Source of the DNA: Mogibacterium sp.
Lineage (GTDB): Bacteria > Bacillota > Clostridia > Peptostreptococcales > Anaerovoracaceae
Length of the DNA stretch: 64,000 nt
Reading direction: 5' to 3'
Assembly: GCA_017510725.1 (NCBI GenBank)
Contig: JAFWMD010000049.1
Coordinates: 82,478 to 146,477 of the forward strand
Shown: piece by piece, positions 18,504 through 38,836 of the stretch
How positions within the stretch are numbered: the stretch's first letter is position 1
Layout: every line of letters starts with the position of its first letter
Translations under genes and position numbers: made by a program
The notes under the pieces: generated by a model
Told to the model about the DNA's origin: nothing
What the model saw: only the letters and a program-made list of their open reading frames with translations
The model's database searches: none

Positions 18504-20714
18504 CTACCAGTCTCCGTCGCCCCAGCTGCTGCTTCCGCCGCCGCTTGATTTCTTCTTCTTAGAGGACGACTTTTTCTTCTTGCTTCCGCCGCCGCCACCG
18601 CCGCTGCTTACGACAGGCTTAGGTCCTATGCTCTTGCTGATAGTGACGGTTGAACCCTTGTTGGCGGTCTTGCCGCCTGCTACGGACTGCTCTACGATCG
18701 TTCCCGATGCAGCGCTGTTATAAACTTCTACGACTTCTACGCCGAATCCAAGATCCTTAAGCGCCTTGGATGCCTCATCGGCTCCCTTGCCGACTACATC
18801 AGGCACTTCGACCTGTGTGATGCCCTTGCTCTTAACGACATTGATGACCTGGCCTTCCTCACAGTCGGTGCCCTTCTCGATCTCCTGGCTGATTATCATG
18901 TCCTTGCCAAGTGTGTCAGAGAATTCTTCTCCTGTTACCTCAATGACCAGTCCGAGCTTTTTAGCTGCTTTCTCAGCGTCTCCGAGTTTCTGCCCTACGA
19001 GCTCAGGTGCAGGGATTGGTTTTCCCTTACTGACAACAACCTCAACCGGTGATCCCTTCTTGAGGTGTGATCCGGCTTCAGCCGTCTGAGAAATTACTGT
19101 ATCCCTAGGTACATCATCCGAGAACTGGCGATCTTCTGAATATGAAAGGCCCGCATCTTCTATCGCTGCCTTTGCGCTGTCAGCTCCGAGGCCGGCAACA
19201 TCTGGCACAGTGTGATTGAAGTAGGTAAATGCGAAGATACCCAGAGCAACAACCACCACACCTGCTATGATAGGTATTATAGGTGTCTTCTTCTTTTCAG
19301 CCGGCTTGCGGACCGCAGTTTTTTTGCCGGCAGCAGCAGGTTTCTTCTCTTCGACTGCAGTATCAGCCGCAGCCGGAATTCCTGCATTCATTGCCATAAG
19401 AGCAGGATCACCCATCGTTTCTTCGTCTTCGAGCTCCTGCGAATCAGTGATCGGCACCATGACATCATCCAGATCCTCAGTAGCCTCTATTTCAGGCTTG
19501 AACCTGTCGTCGCTTACGCCCGTGCTCAATTCGATTTCAGGCATTGACGGTTCATGCACGGATGGCTCATGTACCGGTGGTTCCGGTCTTGATGGCTCTG
19601 GTCTGGAAATCTCCTGTACTGAAGGCTCAGACACCCTGACAGGTTCCGGATGCGAATATGCACCCATAGACCTCTCTCTGCCTGCAGCCGCTGAACTGAA
19701 TATCGATACCGTGGCATCTTCAGGAACGGCTGCCGACATGGCTGATCCGGTGCTTGCTTCCATTTTGCCCAGCGAATCGCCGGATGGATAAATCAGACTT
19801 GCTTCGTTGTCGTTGTACAGGATCGCCTCAAGAGCCTTACGCATGTCTCCCGGACGCTCATATCTTTCCTTAGGATCATATGCACACGCCTTGAGAATGA
19901 TCTCTGCAAGGCGTCCATGCGCATTGCATGGAGGAGGAAGCTGTTCTCCGTTCATCCTGCGCATGTTTGCTTTTTCGCGGTCGGAGTATTTGATCTCCTG
20001 CGGATACGGCGGCATCAGCGGAGTCCTGTTATTGTTAAGGAAACGGTAAAGAACTATGCCCAGTGAATAGATATCAACCGTTGAGTCATAGTGCTGCCCC
20101 TTATAGACTTCAGGAGCCATGTACGAATATGTGCCCTTCTTGGACATTCCGACGCTGGCTTTCTCCATCTGCCTTGCGATACCGAAGTCTCCGAGCTTAT
20201 ATGATCCGATGCTGGAGACGAAAATATTCTCAGGCTTGATGTCCCTGTGGATCAGGTTGAACTTCTGGCACACTTCAAGTGCCTTGCACATGTCAATACC
20301 GAGATTGATGACGTCACGGATAGTCAGAGGATGCTGCGAGATATATTGATAAAGCGGAGTCAGAAGCTCCATTCTTATGCAGATCTCCCAGCCGTAATAA
20401 TCCGTAATAGGCGTAACAGAGTGGTCTTCGTAGCTGACTATGTTGCTGTGTCCGCGAAGTTCGGACATCAGGGATATCTCGTCAACGATCTCATCTGCCA
20501 TGCCGCGGAAATACTCGGTCACGCTGTGCTCTTCCATTCCCTCGCTTATTACAGAATTCAGTTCTGATTTGCTCTGAGGGATGCGAATGACTTTAAGCGC
20601 GGATTCGTAAGTACGTCCGAATTCCTTTCTGACTACTTTATATACGCTTCCGAACGCGCCTTCACCGAGAAGTGAATCTATGGTCCAGTCTCTCCATTTA
20701 TCACCAATGTTCAT
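18504..20714 (-). CDS. Hanks-type Ser/Thr protein kinase with three PASTA repeats (K1)
   Basis: GEGAFGSVYK, ALKVIRIPQ, HRDIKPENIF, DFGIAR, YMAPE. TM (IIPIIAGVVVVALGIFAFTYF). PASTA-like VPDVAGLGADSAKAAIEDAGL, APELVGQKLGDAEKAAKKLGL, VPDVVGKGADEASKALKDLGF. Low-complexity tail GGGGGGSKKKKSSSKKKKSSGGGSSSWGDGDW. Confidence 0.92.
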   Translation of the reverse strand: MNIGDKWRDWTIDSLLGEGAFGSVYKVVRKEFGRTYESALKVIRIPQSKSELNSVISEGMEEHSVTEYFRGMADEIVDEISLMSELRGHSNIVSYEDHSVTPITDYYGWEICIRMELLTPLYQYISQHPLTIRDVINLGIDMCKALEVCQKFNLIHRDIKPENIFVSSIGSYKLGDFGIARQMEKASVGMSKKGTYSYMAPEVYKGQHYDSTVDIYSLGIVLYRFLNNNRTPLMPPYPQEIKYSDREKANMRRMNGEQLPPPCNAHGRLAEIILKACAYDPKERYERPGDMRKALEAILYNDNEASLIYPSGDSLGKMEASTGSAMSAAVPEDATVSIFSSAAAGRERSMGAYSHPEPVRVSEPSVQEISRPEPSRPEPPVHEPSVHEPSMPEIELSTGVSDDRFKPEIEATEDLDDVMVPITDSQELEDEETMGDPALMAMNAGIPAAADTAVEEKKPAAAGKKTAVRKPAEKKKTPIIPIIAGVVVVALGIFAFTYFNHTVPDVAGLGADSAKAAIEDAGLSYSEDRQFSDDVPRDTVISQTAEAGSHLKKGSPVEVVVSKGKPIPAPELVGQKLGDAEKAAKKLGLVIEVTGEEFSDTLGKDMIISQEIEKGTDCEEGQVINVVKSKGITQVEVPDVVGKGADEASKALKDLGFGVEVVEVYNSAASGTIVEQSVAGGKTANKGSTVTISKSIGPKPVVSSGGGGGGSKKKKSSSKKKKSSGGGSSSWGDGDW

Positions 20715-20768
20715 TAGTTTGCCAATTTCCTTTCAGTTTCAACATAAATAGCAAATTATTATATCATA

Positions 20769-22400
20769 TTATTTGCCCGTGTCATCATCCCATTCGCATA
20801 TATATCCGAAATATTTCGTGGAGCAGTAGTCCGGCGCTTCTTCATGACTGACGCCGTTAACATTGGATGTGCCTGCATTGTTTATATCGTTCCACCTCAG
20901 ATATTCGCCTGCACCCTGGTCTCCCTTAGTCAGCTGTATCTCAAGGTAATCCTGCCCTTCTTTCTTGATATCGTTTACACCGTCGTTAGGCTGGTTATCG
21001 CCCCAGTTTGAGTAGTCCCAGGCTTCTTCCGTTATCCATTTCCATCTGCTTTCTGATTCCTCGTCGGTACCTCCCAGCCAATAGTGATGGACATTTGCAT
21101 TCTGAGTATCATGCTCTTCTATCAGGTCTGAGATGAAGCTCTGCTCCTCTGCGCTTGTTATTGTGGCGAGGTGTCCGCTGTTTTCCTCGCATGCCGCCCT
21201 TGCCTCTGTCCAGGTAAGGTGTTCATCAATGAGCTTATAATAGTGGCCGTTGAACGCTGCTGCCCCTTCAAGGTATTCCAGAACAGCCTTCTCAGCAGGC
21301 TTCGTTGCCAGGAAGACCCCTCCTGCTATAAAAGCCAGGGCTACGGCAGCAGCTATAAGGATCAGCGGTTTTCTGCTGTGTGAAACAGGAACATCCCTTG
21401 CCGCTGCAGCTGTCGTTCCATCTGCCGCAGCTGCTTCATCTGCTACAGTTGCTTCATCCGCAAAGTCATAGACCGGACGATCGCCGTATTGCTGATAAGC
21501 CTCAAGATCACGGCGCATCTGAGAAGCAGTACGGTATCTGTCTGCCGGATCGGCCGCGCATGCTTTAAGTATGATCTGAGACAGCCTGTTTCCGGCATAT
21601 TGAGGCGCGGGGATCTTTTCTCCGCTGAGCCTTCTGACCCTTGCCTCTTCCTCATCCTGCAATGTCACCTTGGCAGGAGGCACCGGCAGGAACGGCGCCC
21701 TGTTTCCGTTGAGCAATGAATACAGTACTATGCCCAGCGAATAGATATCCACTGTCTCATCATAGCGTTCTCCCCTGAACACCTCAGGAGCCATGTATTT
21801 ATACGTTCCCTTTTTGGACATGCCTCCCGTTGTTTTCTCCATCGTTCTCGCAATACCGAAGTCTCCTAGCTTGAAGTCTCCATTATCCGAAATGAAGATG
21901 TTCTGGGGCTTGATGTCCCTGTGTATGATGTTCTTTTTATGACATATTTCGAGCGCCTTGCAGATGTCTGTGCCCAGCCTTACCACTTCACTCTCATCGA
22001 GCTTTCTTTCGATCATGCGGCTGATCAGCGGCGTGAGCAATTCCATCCTTATAAGGATGTCGTAGCCTATGCCGTCATCGTGAGGGATGATCATGTGATC
22101 TTCATAGCTCACTATATTGCTGTTTCCCTTGAGCTGAGCCATGATCTCGTTCTCATTGATTATCTCTTTGAGAACTGTATTGTAATAATCCGAGATCGAT
22201 GCGAGATCTGAGCCCTCACTTAGCAGACTCCTGATATCCTCCTCATCCTGAGGAACAGTGATTATCTTGAGAGCTGCCCTGTAAGTCGTTCCGAACTCCT
22301 CTCTGGTGATTTCGAATACCTTACCGAAGCTGCCCTTACCTATAAGTCTGCTCAGATACCACGACCCGAAAAACGGTTCATATTTTCTGTACTCTTCCAT
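20769..22400 (-). CDS. Hanks-type Ser/Thr protein kinase with extracellular C-type lectin-like domain (K2)
   Basis: GKGSFGKVFE, ALKIITVPQ, HRDIKPQNIF, DFGIAR, YMAPE. TM (LILIAAAVALAFIAGGVFLA). CTLD pattern: WTEARAACEENSGHLATITSAEEQSFI ... HYWLGGTDEESESRWKWITEEAWDYSNWGDNQPND ... RWNDINN ... YICEW. Confidence 0.88.
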   Translation of the reverse strand: MEEYRKYEPFFGSWYLSRLIGKGSFGKVFEITREEFGTTYRAALKIITVPQDEEDIRSLLSEGSDLASISDYYNTVLKEIINENEIMAQLKGNSNIVSYEDHMIIPHDDGIGYDILIRMELLTPLISRMIERKLDESEVVRLGTDICKALEICHKKNIIHRDIKPQNIFISDNGDFKLGDFGIARTMEKTTGGMSKKGTYKYMAPEVFRGERYDETVDIYSLGIVLYSLLNGNRAPFLPVPPAKVTLQDEEEARVRRLSGEKIPAPQYAGNRLSQIILKACAADPADRYRTASQMRRDLEAYQQYGDRPVYDFADEATVADEAAAADGTTAAAARDVPVSHSRKPLILIAAAVALAFIAGGVFLATKPAEKAVLEYLEGAAAFNGHYYKLIDEHLTWTEARAACEENSGHLATITSAEEQSFISDLIEEHDTQNANVHHYWLGGTDEESESRWKWITEEAWDYSNWGDNQPNDGVNDIKKEGQDYLEIQLTKGDQGAGEYLRWNDINNAGTSNVNGVSHEEAPDYCSTKYFGYICEWDDDTGK

Positions 22401-22428
22401 ATGTCTGTACCTGTTTTTCTATTATGAT

Positions 22429-22583: not shown

Positions 22584-22642
22584 GTTTGATGATATAATAA
22601 TCAGACAGCAATTTTTAACAGTATACGGACAATGGTGGATCA

Positions 22643-24379
22643 GTGAATATAGGTGATACATGGAAAGGCTGGACTGTCGACTCCGTCATCGGAGAAGGCA
22701 CGTTCGGCTCAGTTTACAGAATAGTGCGCGAAGAGTTCGGTCATGTATATGAGTCGGCTCTCAAAGTCATCAGAGTACCTCAGAGCAGCACCGAACTGGC
22801 TTCCCTCAGGGAAGAGGGCATGAGCGATGAGAGCATTACCTTGTATTATCAGGGAATGATTGAAGAGATCGTATCTGAGATCTCCATCATGTCAAAGCTC
22901 AGAGGCAACAGCAACATTGTCAGCTACGAGGATCACAAGGTAGTCGAACTTGAGGATGACTTCGGGTGGAACATCTTCATCCGCATGGAGATGCTGACTC
23001 CTCTGTATACGTATATAAAGGATCACCCGATGTCCGAGAAGGATGTTGTAAAACTGGGAATCGATATCTGCAGGGCTCTCGAGGTCTGCCAGCATTTCAG
23101 CATCATCCACAGGGATATAAAGCCTGAAAACATATTCGTTTCATCACAGGGAACTTTCAAGCTGGGAGATTTCGGCATCGCCAAGCAGCTCGACAAAGCC
23201 ACCCAGGCTCTTTCGAAGAAAGGCACCTATACATACATGGCACCTGAGGTTTACCGCGAGGAGCCTTACGGAGCTACAGTCGACACCTATTCACTGGGAA
23301 TCGTTCTGTACAGATTCCTCAATGACGGACGTACACCGTTCATGCCGCCTGCCGACCAGCCAATACGCTTCCAGGACAAGGACAAGGCAACAGCAAAAAG
23401 AATGCTGGGCCAGCCTCTGCCTCCTCCTTCCGGAGCTCAGCCTGCGCTATCAGATATCATACTCAAAGCCTGCGCTTTTGCCCCTGAAGACAGGTACAGC
23501 AGCGCCAGGGATATGCGTCTGGCTCTTGAATCCCTCTATCCTGACGAATTCAGGACTTTATCCGGGACAACTGAAATGGACCTGAGCGACGACCCTACTC
23601 TTGCATGGGATGCGGCTTCCGATGATTCCGATGAAGTGACACTGCCATGGAATGCAGTTCCTGAAAAACCGTCTGCATCCGGCGGCAAAGGCAGGAAAAA
23701 CTACGGTAAGATCATAGGTATCGCAGCAGCAGCTGTAATCGTTATACTTGCCGGTTATCTCATATACAGCAACATGGGCAAGGTAGAAGTTCCATACGCT
23801 GTCGGCCTTAATGAAGATGAGGCACAGACTGCGATAGAGTCAGCCGGCTTTATATATACCGAAAACCGTGAATTCTCTGAAGACGTTGATCAGGGTACAG
23901 TTATATCCCAGTCTACTGCCGAAGGAGGTTCTCTGAAAAAGGGTTCTGAAGTCACAGTAGTTGTAAGCCGCGGTGAGCCTCTGGAAGTGCCGGATACCCT
24001 GCGTACACCAAAGAAAAGGTCTCAGGTGATTATAGAATCGGCAGGCTTTGCCTATGAGTTCGGCGGAGAAGAATATTCCTATGAAGTTACCTCCGGATAT
24101 ATCTGCCGGCAGGAACCGGGTCCGGGTGAACAAGGTGAAGCCGGTCAGACCATAAAAGTATGGCTCAGCAAAGGCCCGGCAAGTAAGACGGTCCCTGACG
24201 TGACAGGAATGACGCCTGACAAGGCAAGAGCCGCCTTGCAGGAGGTAGGACTGAGGATAATGGTAACCTCCATGCACAGCGACAAAGTCCCTTCCGGTCA
24301 GATCATAACCCAGGAACCTGTTCCTGGAACCGAAGTTGATGAAAATTCGCTCGTTAGAGTCACAGTAAGCATCGGATAA
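22643..24379 (+). CDS. Hanks-type Ser/Thr protein kinase with PASTA repeats (K3)
   Basis: GTG start. GEGTFGSVYR, ALKVIRVPQ, HRDIKPENIF, DFGIAK, YMAPE. TM (IIGIAAAAVIVILAGYLIY). PASTA-like VPYAVGLNEDEAQTAIESAGF and VPDVTGMTPDKARAALQEVGL. Confidence 0.92.
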   Translation: MNIGDTWKGWTVDSVIGEGTFGSVYRIVREEFGHVYESALKVIRVPQSSTELASLREEGMSDESITLYYQGMIEEIVSEISIMSKLRGNSNIVSYEDHKVVELEDDFGWNIFIRMEMLTPLYTYIKDHPMSEKDVVKLGIDICRALEVCQHFSIIHRDIKPENIFVSSQGTFKLGDFGIAKQLDKATQALSKKGTYTYMAPEVYREEPYGATVDTYSLGIVLYRFLNDGRTPFMPPADQPIRFQDKDKATAKRMLGQPLPPPSGAQPALSDIILKACAFAPEDRYSSARDMRLALESLYPDEFRTLSGTTEMDLSDDPTLAWDAASDDSDEVTLPWNAVPEKPSASGGKGRKNYGKIIGIAAAAVIVILAGYLIYSNMGKVEVPYAVGLNEDEAQTAIESAGFIYTENREFSEDVDQGTVISQSTAEGGSLKKGSEVTVVVSRGEPLEVPDTLRTPKKRSQVIIESAGFAYEFGGEEYSYEVTSGYICRQEPGPGEQGEAGQTIKVWLSKGPASKTVPDVTGMTPDKARAALQEVGLRIMVTSMHSDKVPSGQIITQEPVPGTEVDENSLVRVTVSIG

Positions 24380-24393: not shown

Positions 24394-26064
24394 ATGTTAA
24401 ACCCCGGAGATACCTGGAATGAATGGACAGTAGATTCATTTCTCGGTGAAGGACAGTTTGGAAAAGTTTTTAAAATAGTCCGGCGTGACAGTTTCGGCAA
24501 CGTTTACGAATCTGCTCTCAAGGAGATGAGGATCCCTGAGAGCGATGTTGAGCTGGAGACAATCAGAAACGAGGTCCAGGACGAGGAAGGCGTCTACAAT
24601 TACTTCCGCAGCAAAGTTGAGGATATTGTTTCCGAGTTCATTCTGATGTCTGAGCTCAAAGGAAACAGCAACATCGTCAGCTATGAGGACCATCAGGTGA
24701 TCCAGCATCCCGGTGAGCCGGTCTGGGACATCTTTATCCGGATGGAGCTGCTGACACCTCTCAACAAGCACGTCCGCAAGTCCTCTTTCACTATCAAAGA
24801 TGTTGTAAAGCTCGGCATCGATATCTGCAGCGCTCTGGAGCTTTGCCAGGCCAATCACATCATCCACAGGGATATCAAGCCAGAGAATATATTCTATTCT
24901 GAAACAGGAAACTATAAACTTGGCGATTTCGGTATCGCCCGTGAACTGGATGCTACCGCAGCCATGACACGTGTCGGTACGTACTCATACATGGCTCCTG
25001 AGATCAGCAAAGGCCTTGCGTATAACGCTTCCGTAGACATCTACTCTCTCGGTCTGGTTCTGTACCGTTTTCTTAACAACAACAGGCTGCCGTTCACCCC
25101 GCCTTACCCGGAACCTGTAAGGCACAGGGACAGAGAAGAGGCGAACAGAAAACGCATGAGGGGCGAACCAATGCCGCCGCCATGCAACGCTTCAAAAGAA
25201 CTCGCGGATGTAGTCCTCAAGGCCTGTGCATACAATCCTTTATACAGATACAGCAACGCAACGGAGATGCGTAAGGCTCTCGAGATGATCGATCCGGACA
25301 ATGCAAACGTTGTTCTGCAGCCAAAAGATGAATACAGCCGCACCGGCTCATCAGCAATATCAGCTTCTGCATCAGCCTCATCATCAGTTTCATCATCAGC
25401 TTTTGCATCCGATGATGAAGAGAAGACAGTAAAGGAAAAACCTAAGAAGAAAATCGGCAAGATCATCCTTATCTTCTTCCTGGTGCTCTTTCTGCTGGCA
25501 GCAGCCGCAGGCGGTGCAGCATTCTACTTTACCGACTATTACCTGACGTACTTCACACCTGAATATGACAACGGCCCGATCAGTGAAAAAGATCAGGCTA
25601 ACGGGTTCAACGGATCATGGGGCTATAATGAGAAAAAAGTCAAAAAGCTGAAGTACGGTGACGTTACGGCCTATGTCCCTTCCAACTGGAGACGGTACTT
25701 CCTCGACATGGGTATATACGGTAAGGAAGCCGAGGGAAGATACGCAGAAATAGATGACGCTAACGGCAACAGGCTCGCCTGGTTCAAAATCGAATATCTT
25801 GGCGAGTTCTCCTCAATAAAAGAGCTGCGGAAAAGTGATACGGGCAAGGAGCTCTTTCTTAAAGGAAAGTCAAAAGACATTGAGGGCTGCGATGATGCCT
25901 GGGCCATCAAGAGTTTCAGAAACCTTGACGGTGAGACTATCAAGGCGATTGCCGTGATAGTCAACGGCAAGGCGTACTGGATAGGCGGCGGCGCAATAGG
26001 AGATAACTACAGCGTCACCAATTTCAATAAACTGATAGACTCCTGCGAATACGCGCAGGAATAA
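24394..26064 (+). CDS. Hanks-type Ser/Thr protein kinase, single TM, unassigned ~170-aa ectodomain (K4)
   Basis: GEGQFGKVFK, ALKEMRIPE, HRDIKPENIF, DFGIAR, YMAPE. TM (IILIFFLVLFLLAAAAGGAAFYF). Confidence 0.9.
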   Translation: MLNPGDTWNEWTVDSFLGEGQFGKVFKIVRRDSFGNVYESALKEMRIPESDVELETIRNEVQDEEGVYNYFRSKVEDIVSEFILMSELKGNSNIVSYEDHQVIQHPGEPVWDIFIRMELLTPLNKHVRKSSFTIKDVVKLGIDICSALELCQANHIIHRDIKPENIFYSETGNYKLGDFGIARELDATAAMTRVGTYSYMAPEISKGLAYNASVDIYSLGLVLYRFLNNNRLPFTPPYPEPVRHRDREEANRKRMRGEPMPPPCNASKELADVVLKACAYNPLYRYSNATEMRKALEMIDPDNANVVLQPKDEYSRTGSSAISASASASSSVSSSAFASDDEEKTVKEKPKKKIGKIILIFFLVLFLLAAAAGGAAFYFTDYYLTYFTPEYDNGPISEKDQANGFNGSWGYNEKKVKKLKYGDVTAYVPSNWRRYFLDMGIYGKEAEGRYAEIDDANGNRLAWFKIEYLGEFSSIKELRKSDTGKELFLKGKSKDIEGCDDAWAIKSFRNLDGETIKAIAVIVNGKAYWIGGGAIGDNYSVTNFNKLIDSCEYAQE

Positions 26065-30308: not shown

Positions 30309-30950
30309 TTATACTTCAGGGCTGTCACTTATCTGATCTTCATATATGTCTGTGTCATGCTCACCGGCAGCGATGTTTTCAAGCATCCATATTGTTGCGG
30401 TATTGATCAGGCTGCTTACATCCGGCTGATCCTCCGCGCCGTCTGGCAGGCTGATCTCTGAGATCAATGATCTATCCTTATCCCAGGCTCTTCCGCTTAT
30501 TTTTAAGCACTTGTTTATATCATGCTCCGGTGTAATGGATCCAAGCGCATATGTAAATGCTCCTACAACGAGGTCCAGCCTCGGCAGCAGTTCGATCGTA
30601 TATTTGCCCGGATCATCTGCTTTTGTTATGTTCTTATCGTCTATTACACACAGATAGTATGCATTCCTTATATATACAGTCAGTCCTGCGCTGTTTAATT
30701 CATTATCTATCCTGATTTGCTGCTCAGGTTCTATCATCATGTTCAGCAGGTGATGTGCAAGAGCTCCAAGGTGTATGTTCCCGTCAGTGGATTCGAGAAA
30801 CTCCGCTTCTGCCAGCTCCCTTATCACGCTTTCTTCCTCATCTTCTGTCAGGTCATTTAGTATGTCATTATCTATATCCTCGAACCCTATGAGTTCACCC
30901 TTTCCGTATTTCATCCTGCACAGTGCGATTGCTCTTTGCGATAAATTCAT
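30309..30950 (-). CDS. Acidic cytoplasmic protein, candidate effector chaperone/adaptor
   Basis: 213 aa with no TM or signal peptide, Asp/Glu-rich. First gene of the effector-lipoprotein unit. Good SD (GAGGTGA) upstream of ATG 30950. No family recognised. Confidence 0.6.
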   Translation of the reverse strand: MNLSQRAIALCRMKYGKGELIGFEDIDNDILNDLTEDEEESVIRELAEAEFLESTDGNIHLGALAHHLLNMMIEPEQQIRIDNELNSAGLTVYIRNAYYLCVIDDKNITKADDPGKYTIELLPRLDLVVGAFTYALGSITPEHDINKCLKISGRAWDKDRSLISEISLPDGAEDQPDVSSLINTATIWMLENIAAGEHDTDIYEDQISDSPEV

Positions 30951-31133: not shown

Positions 31134-33005
31134 ATGGATGTAGGAAATTACTGGAGAGAGTGGGAAATAACAGAACTTGTCGGTGCCGGATCGTACGGCA
31201 AAGTCTTTAAGATAAGGCGTACCGGCATAAACAATTTTGTTGAAGAGTCCGCTCTTAAAGTCATACGAATACCGCAGAATGCATCTGACTATCAGTCTGC
31301 ATTGAGTGAGGGCATGGATGACGAGAGTGTCAGCGCTTATTTTGAGAGCATAGTAAACGAGCTTTCCAATGAATTTGCACTGATGTCACGCCTTAAGGGC
31401 AACACTAACATAGTAAGTTTCGAAGACTATGAAGTTGTCCGTGTTCCTGACGATTTCGGTTGGGAGATATTCATCCGGATGGAGTTTCTCACTCCACTGA
31501 CATCATACATAGCGAACAAAGAAATTACGGTTAAGGATGTAGCCAGAATCGGCATAGATATATGCAAGGCTCTCGAGGTATGTGAGAAAGAAAAAATAAT
31601 CCACCGCGACATCAAGCCCGAGAACATCTTCGTTTCTTCACGCGAAGATTTCAAGCTGGGAGACTTTGGCATAGCCAAGAAGCTTGAAAACACTTCGGTA
31701 AGCCTTACGAAAAAAGGTACCCTTTCATACATGGCACCTGAAGTATACAAAGGCCAGCCATACACTGCTTCTGTTGATATATACTCGCTGGGAATAGTCC
31801 TCTACAGGCTGCTCAACTACAACAGGAATCCGTTTATGCCGCCTTACCCTGAGCGTATCCAGTATCACCACAGAGAAGAAGCAAGAGTGAGGCGGATGAG
31901 CGGTGAGCCTCTGCCTCCGCCGATCAGTGCACCGGAAGATTTTGCCCGTGTCATACTCAAGGCATGTGCCTACGATCCGGCCAACCGCTTTCCTGATGCG
32001 AGGAGCATGCGGCAAGCTATTGAATCTATCGTTTCTGAGGACGAAGAATCCCTCAAGCTGTATCTTGATCAATCGGCTGCTACCGAAACGACCAAGACTC
32101 TTCGTGAAACGGAAACTATAGCTATCAGCGATGCAGAGGTTCAAAAGCCTTCCGGTACGGGAAAGAAAAAACTGGCAATTGGCGGCGCAGTTCTGGCTGT
32201 CCTGCTCATTGTTGTCATCGCAATCTTTACAATGCCAGGTGATGATTCCGTGAGTGATGCCGCTCTGGGTAATACCGTATCCTGGGCAAATGATAAGATA
32301 ACGGGAGCAGCAGAAGATGCCGTACCGGAGCAGACAGCAGCGAAGCAGGATGAGTCAGCTGATGGAATTGAATATCCGGACTACAGCGGCAAAGTTATCA
32401 GGGTTACAAATTCTCAGGAGCTCAGAAATGCCGTACAAAGTCTCAGCGGCTCTTCTTCAGGAACAATAGAGATAGAACCCGGCGTCTATAATGATGGCAA
32501 GCCGCTGATAATAAACTCATCTGATATCAAACTCATGGGTGTCGGCGACAGCAAGCCTGTAATAGGATTCATGATCCAGGTCGATGCAAACAATGTAATG
32601 ATAGAGAATCTGAGCATCGAAATAAAGGATCCAAAATCGACTGCAACATCTGAAGAAACCGAAAACAACGGCATTCTCTGTCAGTCCCCGGGTGGAAAGA
32701 CATATATAAAGAATACTGACATTGACCTGAGTTACGATACGGACTACATCATTTATGGCGTCATGGTCTACAGTCCTGTTGTAATGTCAGGGTGCAGCGT
32801 AGATGTCAGCCATAGTGCGAACGGAAATGTCGCTGTTGGCGCTAACACCAAGTTCACTGCCAGCGGCAACACATTTATCTCCAACGATCTTGGAATGAGT
32901 GTATTTGGCGATTCGAGCGGAATGACTCAGGAAGACCTTCAGGAAATAGTAAATAATAATACATTCCAGGCTCCTACACGCATATCCGCAGCAACGACAT
33001 TCTGA
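31134..33005 (+). CDS. Hanks-type Ser/Thr protein kinase with extracellular right-handed beta-helix-like domain (K6)
   Basis: GAGSYGKVFK, ALKVIRIPQ, HRDIKPENIF, DFGIAK, YMAPE. TM (LAIGGAVLAVLLIVVIAIF). The ectodomain IRVTNSQELRNAVQSL..GTIEIEPGVYNDGKPLIINSSDIKLMG...VMIENLSIE... is typical of pectin-lyase-fold repeats. Confidence 0.88.
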   Translation: MDVGNYWREWEITELVGAGSYGKVFKIRRTGINNFVEESALKVIRIPQNASDYQSALSEGMDDESVSAYFESIVNELSNEFALMSRLKGNTNIVSFEDYEVVRVPDDFGWEIFIRMEFLTPLTSYIANKEITVKDVARIGIDICKALEVCEKEKIIHRDIKPENIFVSSREDFKLGDFGIAKKLENTSVSLTKKGTLSYMAPEVYKGQPYTASVDIYSLGIVLYRLLNYNRNPFMPPYPERIQYHHREEARVRRMSGEPLPPPISAPEDFARVILKACAYDPANRFPDARSMRQAIESIVSEDEESLKLYLDQSAATETTKTLRETETIAISDAEVQKPSGTGKKKLAIGGAVLAVLLIVVIAIFTMPGDDSVSDAALGNTVSWANDKITGAAEDAVPEQTAAKQDESADGIEYPDYSGKVIRVTNSQELRNAVQSLSGSSSGTIEIEPGVYNDGKPLIINSSDIKLMGVGDSKPVIGFMIQVDANNVMIENLSIEIKDPKSTATSEETENNGILCQSPGGKTYIKNTDIDLSYDTDYIIYGVMVYSPVVMSGCSVDVSHSANGNVAVGANTKFTASGNTFISNDLGMSVFGDSSGMTQEDLQEIVNNNTFQAPTRISAATTF

Positions 33006-33016: not shown

Positions 33017-33040
33017 AGAGGAGGGTACTTGCCCTCCTCT
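33017..33040. terminator. Bidirectional rho-independent terminator between convergent kinase genes
   Basis: Stem AGAGGAGGG (33017-33025) / CCCTCCTCT (33032-33040). ATCTTTT follows on the plus strand and GTTTTG on the minus strand. Confidence 0.75.
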
Positions 33041-33073: not shown

Positions 33074-35419
33074 TCATTCAATGTGTATGCTGTTCACGAT
33101 CTTCTCCTGCAGCAATTTATCCCGGTCTGTGTATATACCATTATCTTCATAATCTAATGTTACTCTGATCAGCGCCTTCTTTTTGTCAAGAGGGATATAT
33201 AGTGTATATATATGTCTGTCATTTTTGAGTACTCCTTTTCCAACAGTATCCAGCATGGTTCCTTCGCTGTACCAGCAATCTATACCATCGATTGTTATTT
33301 GTTCCTTGATTGCTCCTGTGTACCTGTCAGAATTATTCATTTTGAAAAGGTCGTAATCAGCTGATTTTTCCGCACCCTTTATATAGACATAGTCTTCATC
33401 TTTATACTCATCCACCACGATAGTCATGCTGCACCATTTACCGTAAGCCCATCTCTGAGAATCATATTCCTCATCCCAGCCTTTTGTCTCAAGGTCAGCC
33501 GGAAATGTGAGGCTGATTCCTGCTACATTCTCAGTAGTTTCCTTATACTCAGGCAATATGGCCTCCTTCCCGGGCTCAGCTGTTATCCTGATGCTTCTGA
33601 TCAACGCCTTGCAGACTTTTCTGTTCTCCTCATTGTCAGGGCCATAGAATGTGAACTCATCGATCCATTCTCCTCCGGCTACCGGGATCATAATGTGATA
33701 ATAGTAGGTATCAGAATCATAAATGAATTCCTGATAACAAGACTCCGTTCCGTCTATAACTATATTTCCCTGACTTAGAATATCATAACTTTTATTATCT
33801 TTATTAGGCGTATGGTATTCATTCACAAGTCCTTTAAGACCTTCTTTATAAAAAATCTCATAAGCAGATTCGTTCGAGTCCCGGTCCCAGCGGTATATAC
33901 AAAAAGTTGCTCCGTTTGTGGAATCATCCGAAGCCCAGTACCATCCCAGTGATTCATCTTCAGATTCGATATTACTTTCAGAGCTTTTCCATCCTGCAGG
34001 TAAATCAAAGCTAAGGCCGTGATCTCTTTGCGGCCACGTTGTCTCCCGCACCTCAGTCGTCTGTTCATCAGCAGTCTGTTCTTCTGCGGCCTTTTCTTCT
34101 GAGGACTGTTCTCCTGATACCATCTCTTCAGCCTTCTGCTGTCCGAGCATGTTGATCACGGATGCAATAAGAGTCAAGGCTACGGCTATAACTGCCAGAA
34201 CGACCCATTTAGGCTTTCTGTTATTCTTTTTCCGATCGCTGAATGCTTTGCTCCTGACTTTACCCCCTGAGCCATTACTGCCTGCATGCTCATCACCTGA
34301 TAAACCGGCTTCCGGCTCATCAGGACTACCTGCCAGCGTCTCGTCCATGACAGTAGGTTCCTGCTCCGTCGGGATATCAAACATACCTAGGGTTTCATCC
34401 AGACTGTCTTCTTTTACAAATACCCGGGATTCTTTTTCTTCAGCCGGTTTTGCAGTAGATACAGCCTGAGATGTTTCCTCAGCGCTTTTTACTTCTGCGG
34501 CTTTTGGCTTGCTGCTGTCTTTACAGCTATTCTCAAGAGCGTTGAGGTCATTGAGGAGTTCCCTCGCGGATTTATATCTGTCCTTTCTGTCATAGGCACA
34601 GGCTTTCAGTATGATGTCTTTCAGCCTGCGGCTTCCGTTGACAGGATCCGGAAGTGTTTCTCCTAAAAGCCTCCTGATATTTGCTGCCTGCACTTCTGAA
34701 GCCAGCGGCGTATCATCCGTTGGTACGAATGGATGCCTCCTTTTGTTGAGCAGCCAGTACATTACAAGCCCGAGCGAGTAAACATCTGCATCCATTCCGT
34801 ATTCTTTTCTGGCTTCTATTTCCGGAGCCATAAAAGTAGGCGTACCCTTGAGAGATGCCATTGTAGTATGGTCCATCTCCCTCGCTACGCCAAAATCTCC
34901 GAGCTTGTATACTCCTTCGTCTGAAACAAGGATGTTATCCGGTTTGATATCACGGTGAATTATGCCCTTTTCTTCACAGAAAACGAGCGCTGACGAAATA
35001 TCCTTTCCGAGCTTTATTACTTCTTCTTCCTTTAATTCCCTGCGCATCCTGTAGAGGGAGCTGAGCAGCTCCATCCTGATGCAGACATCCGAGCCCTCAT
35101 CATCTTCATGAGGCACTTCACGGCAGTCATCGCATCTCACTACGTTAGGGTTTTGCTTCAGCTGGGACATCAGCGCATATTCCCTGAAAATATCGCTGAT
35201 TATCGAACGGCACCATTTGCTGACATCATAATTTGAATTGCGCAGGGTCTCCAGCTCATCTTCACTGGATGGCACACTAATAATTTTGAGCGCAGCTTTC
35301 TCCGTAAACCCGTAAGCGTTGCGCTCAATCTCATATACGCTTCCGAACGATCCCTGTCCGATGCGCCTTATTATTTTCCAGTCTTTCCATGGATTGGTGA
35401 TATTGCTGAAATCTTTCAT
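33074..35419 (-). CDS. Hanks-type Ser/Thr protein kinase, single TM, large (~330 aa) unassigned ectodomain (K7)
   Basis: GQGSFGSVYE, ALKIISVPS, HRDIKPDNILV, DFGVAR, FMAPE. TM (WVVLAVIAVALTLIASVINML). Its start overlaps the PP2C stop by 4 nt. Confidence 0.9.
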   Translation of the reverse strand: MKDFSNITNPWKDWKIIRRIGQGSFGSVYEIERNAYGFTEKAALKIISVPSSEDELETLRNSNYDVSKWCRSIISDIFREYALMSQLKQNPNVVRCDDCREVPHEDDEGSDVCIRMELLSSLYRMRRELKEEEVIKLGKDISSALVFCEEKGIIHRDIKPDNILVSDEGVYKLGDFGVAREMDHTTMASLKGTPTFMAPEIEARKEYGMDADVYSLGLVMYWLLNKRRHPFVPTDDTPLASEVQAANIRRLLGETLPDPVNGSRRLKDIILKACAYDRKDRYKSARELLNDLNALENSCKDSSKPKAAEVKSAEETSQAVSTAKPAEEKESRVFVKEDSLDETLGMFDIPTEQEPTVMDETLAGSPDEPEAGLSGDEHAGSNGSGGKVRSKAFSDRKKNNRKPKWVVLAVIAVALTLIASVINMLGQQKAEEMVSGEQSSEEKAAEEQTADEQTTEVRETTWPQRDHGLSFDLPAGWKSSESNIESEDESLGWYWASDDSTNGATFCIYRWDRDSNESAYEIFYKEGLKGLVNEYHTPNKDNKSYDILSQGNIVIDGTESCYQEFIYDSDTYYYHIMIPVAGGEWIDEFTFYGPDNEENRKVCKALIRSIRITAEPGKEAILPEYKETTENVAGISLTFPADLETKGWDEEYDSQRWAYGKWCSMTIVVDEYKDEDYVYIKGAEKSADYDLFKMNNSDRYTGAIKEQITIDGIDCWYSEGTMLDTVGKGVLKNDRHIYTLYIPLDKKKALIRVTLDYEDNGIYTDRDKLLQEKIVNSIHIE

Positions 35420-36240: not shown

Positions 36241-36265
36241 TTAATTAACTCTCCTTGTAAAAAAC

Positions 36266-38836
36266 TTATAATCTGACCGCTTCGAGAGCCTTACAGAGCT
36301 CTTCGATATCCTGATATCTTTCATCAGGGTCTATCCTCATACATTTCTCGATAACGGCCGCAAAATCAGATGATATATCATTATGATACTCGTGTGCAGG
36401 CTTTATGGCAAAGAAATTCAGACTCGGCCTTACCCCTGTCAGCAAATGATACAATGTTGCCCCTATCGCATATATGTCAGATCGAGGACCATACCCCTTT
36501 TGTATGCAGTCTATGAGGAATGACCTGTTATCAACAACCAGATCCAGCTGATCCTGTGGAAGTGTCTGTTCATCCGGAATCGCGGATGTTTCATCATCCC
36601 ACTCTGCCGCAACGGTTGCCTCATCCCAGTCTCCGGCTACTGTAGGTTCATCCCATTCCTCACTCCACATATCGCCGGATAAGGCCTTATCCAGATTGTT
36701 CTGTACCGGAGAAACAGCCGGCGGCGAAGTATTAGCGCTGTTGAGCAGACTTCGGCTGAGTTCGTCCGACAGTTTGCTGCTGAGATATCCTGATTCTACT
36801 TTGGCCTTGCTGAATGCCTCTACATCAACGCCTCGCTTCTGAAGCAGATTCAGGTAATTCTTTACAAATCCATACTGTTCGATTGGTGAGTAACCAGGGG
36901 TAGTACCTACCGACTTCACTGTCCCCTTGTCAATAATAGCCGAGATGTTGAAATCTATCAGGCATATATTCCCATCAGGTGTCAGCATTATGTTTCCGGG
37001 CTTGATATCGCTGTGTACGATAGCAGGCTGCATGTTGTGCAGGTATCTGACAGCGTCAGACAGCTGCTTTGCCCATATGAGGACGTATTTCTGTTCAAAC
37101 CTGCGCCCTTCCTTGAGATAGTCAGCAAAGCTCTTCCCAGGGACAAAGTCAGTAACAAGATACAGAGCCTGGTCGGCATCAAACACGTCATATATCTTAG
37201 GCAGATACATGTGCTTGACTCTCTTTAGCAATTCTACCTCGCGTTTGCCCGACACGGAGGTCTTCTGGTCGGCAGCTACCTTCTTCAGAACTACCTTTTC
37301 ATTCAGCCTTGTGTGCCATGCCGAGAACACCTCACCGAAGCCGCCCTTGCCTATCACATCAAGAACAGCATATGTATCATTGTAGATTATACTGTCCCCG
37401 ATACCTGCATGGATGACTCTGCTGATCCCGTTCTCACCAAAGCAGTCGTCAGGAACTTCAGAAGGATTGTCAGCTGCAAGAATAAACATTGCATTTCTGT
37501 CATCAGCTGTATTGCTGATAAAGTCCATCAGTTTCTGAGCTGTTTTTTTACCCGGATCACTTCCGAACAGCGAGTCAAAATGATTGATGAAGAAGCATGT
37601 CGGCTTATTGCTGTCGCATTTCAGTTCTATTTCACCACTGTCCGCCATCCGTCTCATGAGATCAGATGCATCCAGATACTCTATTTCCTGACTGAGCGAA
37701 GAGGAAAGATTCTCTACTACATACTGTTTATTCATTTCAGCATTGCCGTAGAGCAGTATCGTTTTTACCGGTTTTTTCCCCGTAAATATGACTTTGCTGT
37801 AGCTCTTTTCGCTGGAAAGTGTGCCGGCAATTGCTTCGATTTCTTCAGAGAAGTTCCTTTCTACATCTATCGCAGAAATGATCAGCTGGCCTGTGTTTGC
37901 TTCAAGATCCGCCTGTGACATTGCATTTGAGACCTTGAATGATGAGAACGGTCTTGTGATCACATATGCCAGGATGGTCTGTATCAGGACCTGAACGACT
38001 GAAATATTCACAGTAAGTCCGTCGACAAGGTTCAGCAGCGGTCCCGAGCCTGTCAGCAGCGCTGCCATAAGAGCAAATATCACTCCTTCACGAATATCAA
38101 GAGGGATCCTGGTGATCTTCACATTTTCGGATATCAGCAGTCTGCCGGCTATTATGGCAATGATCAGGTTAACTGCAATGACTACTATCAGCGGCAGCAG
38201 CATGCTTCCGGCCTGAGTGGCTCCGAACCCCAGATCAATACCTGCGATAACATTCTCCAGGTTTGATTTCATGCTCATGCCTTGCTGATTCCAAATGCTT
38301 AGCGGCTCCTCGTTAGCTATGTAGATGCCTGACACAAATCCCATAATTGAAAAAACTACCGCCGCTGTATATTTTGGGGAGCTGCTCATCTTATGTCCGC
38401 AAAAAACTATCAGGGTAAACAGCAGATATGCTGCTGCAGGTGAGCCTTCCTTCGAAGTCATCATACATAATGGGATCAGCATAAGTATCAGGCAGTGGAC
38501 CGACTTTGATATGACTCCTTCAAAAATCATAAGAACCGCAGCCACTGTAACAAGAATCGGAGCGGTCCCGCCTATCGTTATGAACAATGCGGCTCCCGAC
38601 AAGGCAACACCCAGTCCAGGGGATAACAGTGTCAGGGCAGCACATCCAAGCGATATAAGAATTACCAGCTGCCCCTCTACCAGGCCCGGCAGAGGTACTT
38701 CTCCAAGCTTGCTGTAAAAACTCAGCATCCTGAAAACGCCTGCACCGCATACTGCGGCGCAGACTATTTTCATGATGATCTCATATTTAACTTTTTTCAG
38801 GAAGAAATTATCCCATCTGAGTCTCAGATTATCCAT
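36266..38836 (-). CDS. Three-part fusion: polytopic membrane domain, degenerate AAA+ (SpoVK/CbxX/EccA-like) module, atypical Hanks kinase (K8)
   Basis: aa ~20-297 form multiple TM helices. aa ~345-465: VIFTGKKPVKTILLYGNAEMNKQYV ... CFFINHFDSLFG ... AQKLMDFISNTADDRNAMFILAADNP has the AAA+ layout with the Walker A/B residues lost. aa ~488-856: GKGGFGEVFS, VVLKKV, HSDIKPGNIML, IDFNIS, TPGYSPIE, SDIYAIGATLYHLLTG, with a WDE-repeat insert. Confidence 0.8.
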   Translation of the reverse strand: MDNLRLRWDNFFLKKVKYEIIMKIVCAAVCGAGVFRMLSFYSKLGEVPLPGLVEGQLVILISLGCAALTLLSPGLGVALSGAALFITIGGTAPILVTVAAVLMIFEGVISKSVHCLILMLIPLCMMTSKEGSPAAAYLLFTLIVFCGHKMSSSPKYTAAVVFSIMGFVSGIYIANEEPLSIWNQQGMSMKSNLENVIAGIDLGFGATQAGSMLLPLIVVIAVNLIIAIIAGRLLISENVKITRIPLDIREGVIFALMAALLTGSGPLLNLVDGLTVNISVVQVLIQTILAYVITRPFSSFKVSNAMSQADLEANTGQLIISAIDVERNFSEEIEAIAGTLSSEKSYSKVIFTGKKPVKTILLYGNAEMNKQYVVENLSSSLSQEIEYLDASDLMRRMADSGEIELKCDSNKPTCFFINHFDSLFGSDPGKKTAQKLMDFISNTADDRNAMFILAADNPSEVPDDCFGENGISRVIHAGIGDSIIYNDTYAVLDVIGKGGFGEVFSAWHTRLNEKVVLKKVAADQKTSVSGKREVELLKRVKHMYLPKIYDVFDADQALYLVTDFVPGKSFADYLKEGRRFEQKYVLIWAKQLSDAVRYLHNMQPAIVHSDIKPGNIMLTPDGNICLIDFNISAIIDKGTVKSVGTTPGYSPIEQYGFVKNYLNLLQKRGVDVEAFSKAKVESGYLSSKLSDELSRSLLNSANTSPPAVSPVQNNLDKALSGDMWSEEWDEPTVAGDWDEATVAAEWDDETSAIPDEQTLPQDQLDLVVDNRSFLIDCIQKGYGPRSDIYAIGATLYHLLTGVRPSLNFFAIKPAHEYHNDISSDFAAVIEKCMRIDPDERYQDIEELCKALEAVRL

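Follow-up and report, generated by a model that had tools for sequence, protein, structure and literature searches.

A tandem array of Hanks-type kinases, PP2C phosphatases and FHA proteins at a type VII secretion locus of Mogibacterium: candidate phospho-signalling with multiple inputs

Background

Why should a single type VII secretion system (T7SS) locus be accompanied by eight Hanks-type Ser/Thr kinases? The question is raised by a stretch of 64,000 nucleotides (64 kb) from a metagenome-assembled genome (MAG) of Mogibacterium sp. (Anaerovoracaceae, Peptostreptococcales, Clostridia; assembly GCA_017510725.1, contig JAFWMD010000049.1, positions 82,478 to 146,477), which is called the window throughout. 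It encodes the kinases K1 to K8, two PP2C/PPM phosphatases (P1 and P2), several FHA-domain proteins and a T7SS with an EssC-type ATPase. An initial annotation, made from the sequence alone, had proposed that the kinases form a multi-input sensor array which gates the T7SS through FHA readers, as a counterpart of the phosphorylation switch of the type VI secretion system (T6SS). Taken as a whole, the locus is in our view best explained by T7SS-linked phospho-signalling with multiple inputs, a reading to which we give slightly better than even confidence.

Garrett, Higginson and Palmer (2024, PMC11217815) defined the systems T7SSc to T7SSj, in which kinases, PPM phosphatases and FHA proteins are frequent components, and hypothesised a phospho-regulation of T7SS by analogy with the T6SS. 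A recent preprint (2026, PMC13622651) showed that a kinase/phosphatase/FHA pathway named Esr controls Esx transcription and late-substrate secretion in Schaalia odontolytica. The idea of a kinase/phosphatase/FHA control and the T6SS analogy are therefore already published; what is new in the present study is the scale of the array, the diversity of the ectodomains, the tandem-expanding Clostridial kinase family and the domain fusion in K8. Our literature search found nothing on multi-kinase arrays at T7SS loci, nor on T7SS kinases of Mogibacterium or Lachnospiraceae.

Results

The genes were listed from six-frame open reading frames (ORFs) and from Pfam and NCBIfam scans of the window. All eight kinase ORFs named at the outset match Pfam Pkinase with 133-154 bits against a cutoff of 31.7, and the two predicted PP2C genes were likewise recovered by Pfam. 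P1 (26083..26856, plus strand; PP2C_2, 50 bits against a cutoff of 24) lies directly downstream of K4 and P2 (35416..36240, minus strand; PP2C, 43 bits against a cutoff of 20.3) between K8 and K7, and in both enzymes the motifs DGMGG, SDGL and (K/R)DN are intact. Most genes of the window are on the minus strand. Read on that strand from high to low coordinates, the T7SS core consists of FhaZ, a protein with two FHA domains (2xFHA), a Zn-ribbon protein, a 68-aa transmembrane (TM) protein, EssC, a LytTR regulator, a 222-aa protein, YukD, a 120-aa protein, five WXG100 proteins, a Trypsin-TM-FHA protein and variable cargo. K8, P2 and K7 follow on the same strand. The remainder of the array has mixed orientation, with K6 on the plus strand, the genes of a 213-aa, a 328-aa and a 144-aa protein and K5 on the minus strand, P1, K4 and K3 on the plus strand, and K2 and K1 again on the minus strand. 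The kinases do not wrap around the secretion genes, as had been assumed: all eight are found on one side, downstream, and only the FHA proteins occur on both sides.

From FhaZ to K7 (57594-33074) all genes point in the same direction, and most of them overlap or are less than 100 bp apart. There are 18 bp between the gene of a DUF6560 protein and K8 and 25 bp between K8 and P2, and P2 overlaps K7 by 4 bp. A scan for terminators gave no convincing minus-strand site inside this string. A hairpin with a 10 bp stem containing six GC pairs is located at 33017..33040 between the convergent stops of K6 and K7 and is likely a bidirectional terminator. Based on gaps of 16-28 bp or overlaps and the absence of a terminator before 33017-33040, it is plausible that K8, P2 and K7 are co-transcribed with the T7SS genes. 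Rfam returned zero matches across the window.

This gene order is kept in relatives. In the two relatives of K8 with enough sequence context (loci L001 and L003), EssC, the LytTR regulator, the 222-aa protein, YukD, the 120-aa protein, five WXG100 proteins, the Trypsin/FHA protein, cargo, K8 and, after other genes, PP2C and kinases follow each other as in the window, and K8 is 57-66% identical in the relatives sharing this EssC-to-kinases synteny. K8 and a PP2C gene are adjacent in L001 and L002, and in L003 the PP2C gene is found further downstream. The five WXG100 genes have one-to-one orthologues in all related loci. The long EssC type of the window (approximately 1,660-1,680 aa) is common among Clostridial MAGs, where more than 120 clusters reach an identity of at least 49%. 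Four sampled contexts of this EssC share the 2xFHA and Zn-ribbon proteins, EssC, the LytTR regulator and, further on, the five WXG100 genes (and Trypsin-FHA), and they vary in kinase content. L085 possesses one K8-like TPR kinase, and in L087, where EssC is only 49% identical, a PP2C, a K2-like kinase and an FHA protein are encoded directly upstream of EssC.

The locus L094 gives a hint on how the window might have been assembled. There, genes for an Ig/NlpC-P60 protein, an ATP-grasp protein, a 435-aa CapK_C-like protein, an epimerase, a 2xFHA protein and a Zn-ribbon protein (L094:3344-9794) lie directly upstream of EssC. The same block is present in the window at 1243-8836, but approximately 47 kb away from EssC, where a diverged pair of a 2xFHA and a Zn-ribbon protein (FhaY and ZnY) takes its place. 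Since the block of L094 abuts EssC, the block at the far left of the window, which includes the 2xFHA protein FhaX, was ancestrally T7SS-adjacent, and the kinase array and the teichoic-acid genes appear to have been inserted or rearranged between it and EssC.

Two scans show how far this association extends. A genome scan with the kinase alignment used generic HRD/DFG patterns; 14 of the 80 listed loci belonged to the family, and the matches listed included no Mogibacterium reference genome. Among these matches, the three closest loci outside Mogibacterium (52-58% identity; Lachnospiraceae, Eubacteriales and Oscillospiraceae) have EssC and WXG100 beside the kinase, and the reference-genome kinase loci at an identity of 50% or less have no adjacent EssC or WXG100. 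Kinases of the K1-K7 family were found beside EssC and WXG100 in L005, L006, L007, L087, L088 and L089. When four family proteins were sampled without regard to context, two turned out to be encoded in T7SS loci (L088 and L089), one in a six-kinase array without a T7SS gene in view (L090) and one at a contig end (L091). A metagenome scan with the family-specific peptide IRMELLTPL yielded 74 loci with a family kinase, 31 of them at least 8 kb long. Within these 31 loci, EssC is present in seven, any T7SS marker in eight, PP2C in nine, FHA in eight and a second family kinase or more in 16. We estimate a chance co-occurrence with EssC of less than about 1%, assuming a T7SS locus of approximately 25 kb in a genome of 2-3 Mb. 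EssC is thus strongly enriched near the family kinases, but the association is clearly not obligatory. The proposed tie between array and T7SS holds with regard to the kept synteny; it is not exclusive, as T7SS genes occur at 7-8 of the 31 loci. Judged from these sequence comparisons, there is good support for a genomic coupling of kinases, PP2C phosphatases and FHA proteins to the T7SS, above all for K8-P2-K7 and the 2xFHA proteins.

The next question is which protein might read the phosphorylation. Eight FHA or FHA-like domains are present in the window, as the initial annotation had counted. The full GR/SxxH/(S/T)xNG signature of phosphothreonine (pThr) binding is found in only two of them, the C-terminal FHA domains of FhaX (1768..2844, minus strand) and of its 2xFHA paralogue FhaY (55868..56953, minus strand; GR/SREH/STNG). 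The N-terminal domain of FhaX had been credited with this signature as well, but it reads STAG and lacks the Asn of (S/T)xNG, and the N-terminal domain of FhaY is degenerate. The pThr-binding residues are only partly kept in these N-terminal domains, in FhaZ (56992..57594, minus strand), which combines an N-terminal TM segment with an FHA domain (GK/SRLH/SKNG), and in Trypsin-FHA (GR/AKMH/SING). For the 2xFHA protein, GR/SRxH/STNG is present in the C-terminal domain of four out of four orthologues (FhaX, FhaY and those of L085 and L094), and in L085 and L094 the pair of 2xFHA and Zn-ribbon protein stands directly upstream of EssC. Because the signature is kept in all four orthologues and because of this place beside EssC, the C-terminal FHA domain of the 2xFHA protein (FhaX/FhaY) is the best candidate for a pThr reader. 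The 2xFHA protein encoded beside EssC in L085 is more similar to FhaX than to FhaY.

Both 2xFHA proteins are paired with a Zn-ribbon protein, FhaX with ZnX (1243..1746, minus strand) and FhaY with ZnY (54950..55837, minus strand; Zn_Ribbon_1). ZnY contains a long, near-perfect tandem repeat rich in Pro and Glu. Zn-ribbon proteins recur beside family kinases or FHA proteins in unrelated loci (L085, L092, L094, L170 and L171). FhaZ is preceded on the minus strand by an ABC transporter pair (57748..59397), made up of an ATPase (ABC_tran) and a 267-aa partner. At L156:7681-9885, a 2xFHA protein fused to an ABC-2 transporter adjoins a three-kinase array. The kinase family may thus have a further output in FHA-controlled ABC transport, and FhaZ is possibly linked to the ABC transporter of the window.

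K1 to K7 form one kinase family. Their kinase domains are 38-62% mutually identical, with 67 invariant columns that include all catalytic residues, and in the PDB the K1-K7 profile matches PknB, S. aureus PknB (Stk1) and StkP best. K8, which had been regarded as the eighth paralogue, is only about 23% identical to these kinases and has a different architecture. Each of the seven keeps the G-loop, the beta3 Lys, the alphaC Glu, the HRD Asp, the Asn, the DFG Asp and APE. The catalytic motifs ascribed to all seven are accordingly present in their catalytic residues, although not to the letter, since K5 has AMK in place of ALK and K6 has GxGxYG. One TM segment was predicted for every kinase and is found in K1 to K7, but K8 has approximately eight.

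The ectodomains differ widely. K1 (18504..20714, minus strand; TM at 475-503; Pkinase 143 bits) and K3 (22643..24379, plus strand) possess three PASTA repeats each (143 bits in K1) and share the only ectodomain common to two of the kinases, at 38% identity; no PASTA repeats occur in K2 or K4 to K8. K2 (20769..22400, minus strand; Pkinase 154 bits) carries a C-type lectin domain (Lectin_C, 46 bits). K4 (24394..26064, plus strand; ectodomain of 175 aa), K5 (26884..28677, minus strand), K6 (31134..33005, plus strand; 249 aa) and K7 (33074..35419, minus strand; 353 aa) have ectodomains without a Pfam match even at E ≤ 1. The assignments to PASTA and lectin made in the initial annotation were thus correct. 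Its beta-helix in K6 could not be verified, as besides the lacking Pfam match the single-sequence AlphaFold2 model is unusable (predicted local distance difference test, pLDDT, of 43).

The insert that had been noticed after the beta3 strand of several kinases proved to be real and family-wide. It comprises 21-25 residues of the N-lobe, extends the spacing from the G-loop to HRD to approximately 139 residues, as compared to 112-118 in outgroups, K8 and PknB, and sets K1 and K3 apart from the PASTA kinases of Firmicutes. The W-x-x-W motif reported before the kinase domain is present in six of the seven kinases (K2 has F-x-x-W). We reject it as a special motif, since its second Trp occupies the canonical beta1 aromatic position and its first residue varies family-wide: WxxW is found in 36 and F/Y-xx-W in 61 of 120 family members. 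The juxtamembrane linkers of the kinases are rich in Ser and Thr and, together with conserved Thr residues of an insert in K8, are candidate phospho-acceptor sites.

The array continues beyond the window. To its left, the 10 kb next to FhaX encode at least three more family kinases (K9 to K11). A C-type lectin domain is present in one of these, and one was recovered by the family hidden Markov model and has no stored Pfam record. The contig therefore encodes at least 11 kinases in approximately 76 kb. To the right of the window, only cell-wall polymer genes are found. In a neighbor-joining tree of the kinase domains (Kimura distances, 100 bootstraps; deeper nodes unresolved), K5 has one-to-one orthologues in L001 and L003 and K7 has one in L003 (support 100). 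K2 and the off-window kinases K9 and K10 make up a recent clade (support 100), and K1 is the sister of K3 (78). L088, L090 and L091 each show an independent expansion in tandem, and the array of L090 nests beside a T7SS-linked kinase of L089 (100). No detectable similarity was found between the ectodomains of the orthologues (K5 and its counterparts in L001 and L003, K7 and that in L003), nor between those of the paralogues K2, K9 and K10. The tree and the ectodomain comparison support what had been suspected from the window alone, a local duplication followed by swapping of ectodomains.

Head-to-tail arrays of three to six kinases with varied C-terminal lengths are also found in gut-type metagenomes (L141:1-11354, L090, L170 and L171). 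One kinase of L090 (1522 aa) is fused to an ADP-ribosylglycohydrolase domain, and in L088 and L089 the PP2C gene is separated from the kinase by HD_4 and ADP-ribosyl_GH genes.

Several of our observations weigh against the reading of the array as T7SS-linked signalling with multiple extracellular inputs. Teichoic-acid and cell-wall genes (teichoic-acid, LicD, GDPD, NlpC/P60 and ATP-grasp genes) border the region on both flanks. K9 to K11 lie among LGT, VanY, SH3 and further Zn-ribbon genes, more than 55 kb away from EssC. Kinase arrays without a T7SS gene in view do exist with three to six members (L090 with at least six, L141 with six in a row, L170 with four and L171 with three), and their neighbours encode Zn-ribbon proteins, a 2xFHA-ABC2 fusion, an amidase and PASTA-SBP. 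Two EssC-family loci, L086 and L094, lack a kinase within 10 kb. Many T7SS-linked family members of other genera are soluble or C-terminally tail-anchored and have no ectodomain at all. For this reason, the core job of the family is likely intracellular, extracellular sensing being an add-on in some lineages, and the term sensor does not apply to the family in general. On the reader side, Trypsin-FHA is variably degenerate, with an exchange of Ser for Ala in the Mogibacterium lineage, and among 121 EssC homologues the phosphate-Arg position of FHA2 is occupied by K in 66, E in 26, R in 17 and N in four, although Ser, His and Asn are conserved. We therefore reject the FHA domain of EssC as a pThr reader, so that of the FHA readers originally suggested, FhaX and FhaY keep an intact C-terminal domain and EssC drops out.

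Part of this evidence speaks for a rather unlikely but serious alternative, in which the kinases, PP2C phosphatases, FHA and Zn-ribbon proteins serve cell-wall homeostasis as a general envelope network with the T7SS as at most a minor target. Models of such networks are PknA/PknB-PstP-FhaA/FhaB in Actinomycetota and the PASTA kinases of Firmicutes. The two PASTA kinases, the genes on both flanks, the surroundings of K9 to K11, the amidase, PASTA-SBP and FHA-ABC transporter genes beside the T7SS-less arrays and the roughly three quarters of sampled family loci without a T7SS gene would all be expected from it. However, K8, P2 and K7 are contiguous with the cargo on one strand and are kept, at 57-66% K8 identity, while the cargo changes. 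Moreover, the closest homologues in three other Clostridia families (among the matches listed) are in T7SS loci, K5 and K6 enclose a putative T7SS cargo, EssC is accompanied by the 2xFHA and Trypsin-FHA proteins even where the flanks differ, and a co-occurrence with EssC of 23% within approximately 7 kb is far above chance. With regard to K1 and K3, no RsgA, RlmN or Fmt-type genes are found nearby, their neighbours being other kinases, which differs from the housekeeping context PrpC-PrkC-RsgA/CpgA. The kinase/FHA/Zn-ribbon toolkit probably also controls other envelope machines, such as the ABC transporter and cell-wall enzymes, and the array is probably not dedicated to the T7SS.

Another alternative arises from the composition of the secretion machine itself. 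No ORF of the window has a Pfam or NCBIfam match to EssA, EssB/YukC or EsaA/YueB, and since none of these was detected, the system is not a T7SSb, despite its EssC, WXG100 and YukD. The bitopic kinases could stand in for the missing EssB as structural, phosphorylation-independent partners of the EssC FHA domain, and the paralogues would then provide different extracellular heads. Their topology of a cytoplasmic kinase fold, one TM segment and an extracellular domain is that of EssB, and a topological similarity to EssB has been described for the TscD kinase (PMC11217815). The YukC pseudokinase binds the FHA domains of YukB without phosphorylation (PMC9600267), and the relaxed Arg position of the EssC FHA domain fits such a binding. 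Nevertheless, we regard this explanation as improbable, because the catalytic residues of the kinases are under clear constraint and PP2C phosphatases are co-encoded, which argues for phosphotransfer, and because there is no sequence link to EssB/YukC, some loci of the same EssC family have no kinase within 10 kb and many T7SS-linked family members have no ectodomain. EssB/YukC shares with K1 to K7 the bitopic kinase fold and binds the EssC FHA domain, but it is a pseudokinase, whereas the catalytic residues of K1 to K7 are intact. As homologues of EssB, K1 to K7 were rejected, given that they have no Pfam YukC match and that their PDB matches are of the PknB class.

K8 (36266..38836, minus strand) is an unusual fusion. 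It consists of an N-terminal polytopic membrane module (residues ~1-300), a degenerate AAA+ domain (~350-470) with the P-loop LYGNxEMNK and a non-RD Hanks kinase domain (489-856). The motifs HSD, DFN and PIE replace HRD, DFG and APE and are fixed across six orthologues. As Lys, catalytic Asp, Asn and the Asp of DF(N) are all retained in K8, it is predicted to be probably an active non-RD kinase. An acidic insert of approximately 110 residues contains invariant Thr and Trp. The AlphaFold2 model from the six-sequence alignment is unusable (pLDDT 36). Among approximately 5.8 billion clustered proteins, K8 has a 100% identical counterpart annotated from a Mogibacterium sp. MAG and only five full-length relatives with 57-76% identity, and a search with its first 480 residues against 1.84 billion representative proteins yielded no more than 19 relatives. 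Most of these 19 share the membrane/AAA-like/kinase architecture. Two of them have two intact AAA+ domains (IetA-like in PADLOC), and two have a TIR domain (ThsB-like; the four proteins are P0271-P0273 and P0277). A true homology of the membrane module of K8 is supported by hhalign comparisons, in which it matches the TIR protein with a probability of 98% (E 1.9e-13) and common motifs MDxLRxRWD and AY(V/I)xTRP, and the AAA+ protein with a probability of 99%, where an intact Walker A motif (GPPGTGKT) aligns to the degenerate YGNxEMNK of K8. This suggests, as a lead and not as a conclusion, that the N-terminus of K8 is a membrane sensor module which is paired with interchangeable outputs. The membrane module (1-300) is a rare, undescribed domain.

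The relationship of K8 to TIR and AAA+ fusions brings in a further explanation, namely that the kinases including K8 are sensors of conflict comparable to Stk2, PD-T4-6 or Esr and directed at phage, epibionts or incoming toxins, with the T7SS toxins as one effector arm and an arms race driving their evolution. Apart from the homology of the K8 module to ThsB-like and IetA-like fusions, the fast turnover of ectodomains between orthologues and the recurrent tandem expansions of the family are in line with this explanation, and there are precedents in the Esr pathway of oral Actinomycetota (PMC13622651) and in the IreK-dependent induction of the E. faecalis T7SS by phage (cited in PMC11217815). 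On the other hand, the TIR and AAA+ fusions are few, being part of 19 matches among 1.84 billion representatives, and the window encodes no MoxR, vWA or known defence genes according to Pfam and NCBIfam. The PADLOC kinase matches (mad6 with 178-206 bits, PD-T4-6) are generic. They cover the kinase domain only, or PASTA in K1, and partner genes are absent, and we do not count them as evidence of a defence system. We hold it to be a slim possibility that conflict sensing is what the array primarily does.

The remaining components of the secretion machine can be described as follows. EssC (49659..54698, minus strand) has 1679 aa, an N-terminal FHA domain (115-178) and a match to TIGR03928 of 1081 bits against a cutoff of 778. 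Its start codon is overlapped by the gene of the 68-aa single-TM protein (54695..54901, minus strand), which has counterparts of 68-71 aa at the same place in L086, L094 and L095. Like EssA or TsxH/TsxK, this protein may serve the machine as a small membrane subunit. The stop codon of EssC is overlapped by the gene of the LytTR-type DNA-binding regulator (48913..49662, minus strand; PF04397, 62 bits), which directly follows EssC in L003, L007, L085-L087 and L094, that is in every examined locus of this EssC type. The regulator has a receiver-like N-terminus, and no histidine kinase is encoded near it. This orphan LytTR regulator is a candidate target of the Ser/Thr kinases. The 222-aa cytoplasmic protein (48282..48950, minus strand) has no Pfam (E ≤ 1), NCBIfam or PDB match and, owing to its conserved position, is a candidate chaperone (TsiG/EspG-like). 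It is followed by the YukD/EsaB-like ubiquitin-fold protein (48037..48285, minus strand; PF08817, 34 bits against a cutoff of 27) and by the 120-aa protein (47575..47937, minus strand), which is conserved at the same place in L001, L003 and L085-L087 and has no family match in Pfam or NCBIfam, also with Pfam relaxed to E ≤ 1. The five tandem WXG100 genes (45792-46109, 46201-46500, 46569-46925, 46938-47249 and 47260-47565, all minus strand) were identified by Pfam. The Trypsin-TM-FHA protein (44135..45733, minus strand) combines a Trypsin-like ectodomain, one TM segment and a cytoplasmic FHA domain and is a conserved component, present in L001, L003, L086, L087 and L094. Functionally, it may correspond to mycosin (MycP), the protease of the mycobacterial T7SSa.

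The variable cargo is represented in the window by a Rhs/YD-repeat toxin of 1578 aa (39371..44107, minus strand; RHS_repeat 359 bits, DUF6531). The DUF6560 membrane protein next to it (38855..39355, minus strand) is a candidate immunity protein, as L001 encodes it together with Rhs, whereas it is missing in L003, whose cargo is a 455-aa protein and DUF4176 in place of Rhs. A second set of genes lies inside the kinase array, between K5 and K6. The 328-aa protein (29311..30297, minus strand) has a helical N-terminus and the sequence HELRH (HExxH) and is a candidate T7SS cargo or toxin. The 213-aa acidic protein encoded upstream of it (30309..30950, minus strand) is a possible chaperone, and the 144-aa predicted lipoprotein (28837..29271, minus strand), with a signal and a lipobox-like LLLSAC, is a candidate immunity protein for the 328-aa HExxH protein. 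No Pfam match was found for the lipoprotein, no Pfam (E ≤ 1) or NCBIfam match for the 213-aa protein and nothing in a PDB sequence search for the 328-aa protein. However, a homologue of the 328-aa protein (phmmer, 102 bits) is encoded in the T7SS cargo region of L087, beside DUF4176 genes, and the segment 28837-30950 therefore resembles a toxin/immunity cassette inside the kinase array. The 213-aa protein was also considered as a paralogue of the EssC-adjacent 222-aa protein, which was rejected, since the two are unrelated in a direct comparison. Two neighbouring ORFs (407 and 411 aa; 15649-18325), which separate K1 from the teichoic-acid genes, have no family match (Pfam, E ≤ 1) and only a weak match to a 182-aa ORF in L086.

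Discussion

From the observed gene content, motifs, synteny and phylogeny, we infer substrates, co-transcription and a direction of control in four steps. First, K8, P2 and K7 would be part of the T7SS transcription unit. Second, active kinases would autophosphorylate or phosphorylate T7SS-associated proteins on Thr, and the PP2C phosphatases would reverse this. Third, the main readers of the pThr would be FhaX and FhaY through their C-terminal FHA domains, with FhaZ and Trypsin-FHA perhaps as further readers, whereby assembly or activity of the EssC machine would be promoted or blocked and transcription possibly be altered via the LytTR regulator. Fourth, the K1-K7 family, which is large and Clostridial, would duplicate in tandem and exchange its C-terminal domains, giving at least 10 copies in this lineage whose differing ectodomains would supply several extracellular inputs.

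Threonine phosphorylation is reportedly involved in T6SS control through PpkA/PppA/Fha1 in P. aeruginosa and PpkA-TssL-Fha in A. tumefaciens. The present locus resembles these switches in that a contact-dependent toxin-secretion locus includes genes for a PP2C, an FHA protein and a membrane Hanks kinase that carries an extracytoplasmic domain, and kinase, PP2C and FHA are co-encoded and syntenic with the secretion genes across taxa. The likeness is only one of how the systems would work, as the T6SS is an unrelated machine of diderms with a single kinase and a mechanism that has been shown, whereas in the window the switch is deduced from genes.

Among the described T7SS types, T7SSc/d/e/j have in common with the window an EssC-type ATPase, WXG100 proteins, a YukD-like protein, an intact membrane Hanks kinase (TsxD), a PPM phosphatase (TsxF) and an FHA protein (TsxJ), as well as Rhs or LXG-like cargo with extra WXG100-like partners. 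They have one kinase, in contrast to the eight kinases of the window, the at least 11 of the contig and the two PP2C phosphatases. Their FHA protein is of the DUF6382-FHA type, whereas the window encodes 2xFHA proteins with Zn-ribbon proteins, a TM-FHA and a Trypsin-TM-FHA protein (no DUF6382 Pfam match). In addition, no large Ig-rich TsxI is seen beside the EssC of the window, and a LytTR regulator follows it. The component lists of T7SSc-j are without the Trypsin-TM-FHA protein that the system of the window possesses.

Judged by its list of components (TsiB, TsiC, TsiG, TsiM and TsiN), the closest system is T7SSi, which has been described for Vallitalea only (PMC11217815), a comparison made on component lists. 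Both have an FHA-bearing EssC with a poorly conserved pThr motif, a LytTR regulator, a YukD-like protein and multiple WXG100 proteins, and the 222-aa protein of the window, although without a Pfam or PDB match, holds a plausible position for TsiG. Unlike in T7SSi, no TsiM-like P-loop/ParA-like tail-anchored protein was found in the window, and kinases, PP2C phosphatases, Trypsin-FHA and the 2xFHA/Zn-ribbon proteins are added. K8 does combine a degenerate AAA+ domain with a kinase, but it has its TM segments at the N-terminus, while TsiM has a C-terminal one. The EssC type of the window occurs in more than 120 Clostridial MAG clusters and is not restricted to Vallitalea.

The Esr pathway (PMC13622651) is similar in its kinase/phosphatase pair and FHA output within T7SS operons, in its diversified sensors and in its Zn-finger variants of the FHA output. 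It differs in belonging to Actinomycetota and in sensing via MoxR, vWA and a beta-propeller surface protein, whereas the kinases of the window themselves carry variable ectodomains. Neither a MoxR AAA+ protein nor a vWA or beta-propeller sensor was found among the ORFs of the window by Pfam and NCBIfam; the related locus L087 encodes a vWA-FHA protein. K1 and K3 on their part are like the Firmicute PASTA kinases PrkC, Stk1, StkP and IreK, being PknB-class kinases with a single TM segment and three PASTA repeats.

A bolder idea combines several of these aspects. The K1-K7 family might be a bacterial counterpart of expanded receptor-kinase repertoires, shaped by conflict, in which at least 10 receptors and K8 couple the recognition of threats to the firing of an EssB-less T7SS via 2xFHA adaptors, and the K8 module would be an undescribed sensor shared with TIR and AAA+ immune-type effectors. 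We consider this idea unlikely.

Conclusions

If T7SS-linked phospho-signalling with multiple inputs is the correct explanation, this locus would be an extreme case of a secretion system under the control of many membrane receptors, and it could reveal when, and perhaps at whom, a Gram-positive toxin-delivery machine fires. The published hypothesis of phospho-regulation gains a concrete system, with a conserved K8-PP2C-K7 module, one FHA reader that is competent by sequence, and orthologous kinases with unrelated ectodomains. The membrane module of K8, which recurs in TIR and AAA+ fusions, may point the way to a new sensor domain.

To our knowledge, the number of Hanks kinases is very low in most Firmicutes. 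The tandem arrays of 3-11 Hanks kinases in gut, rumen and oral Clostridia revise this picture.

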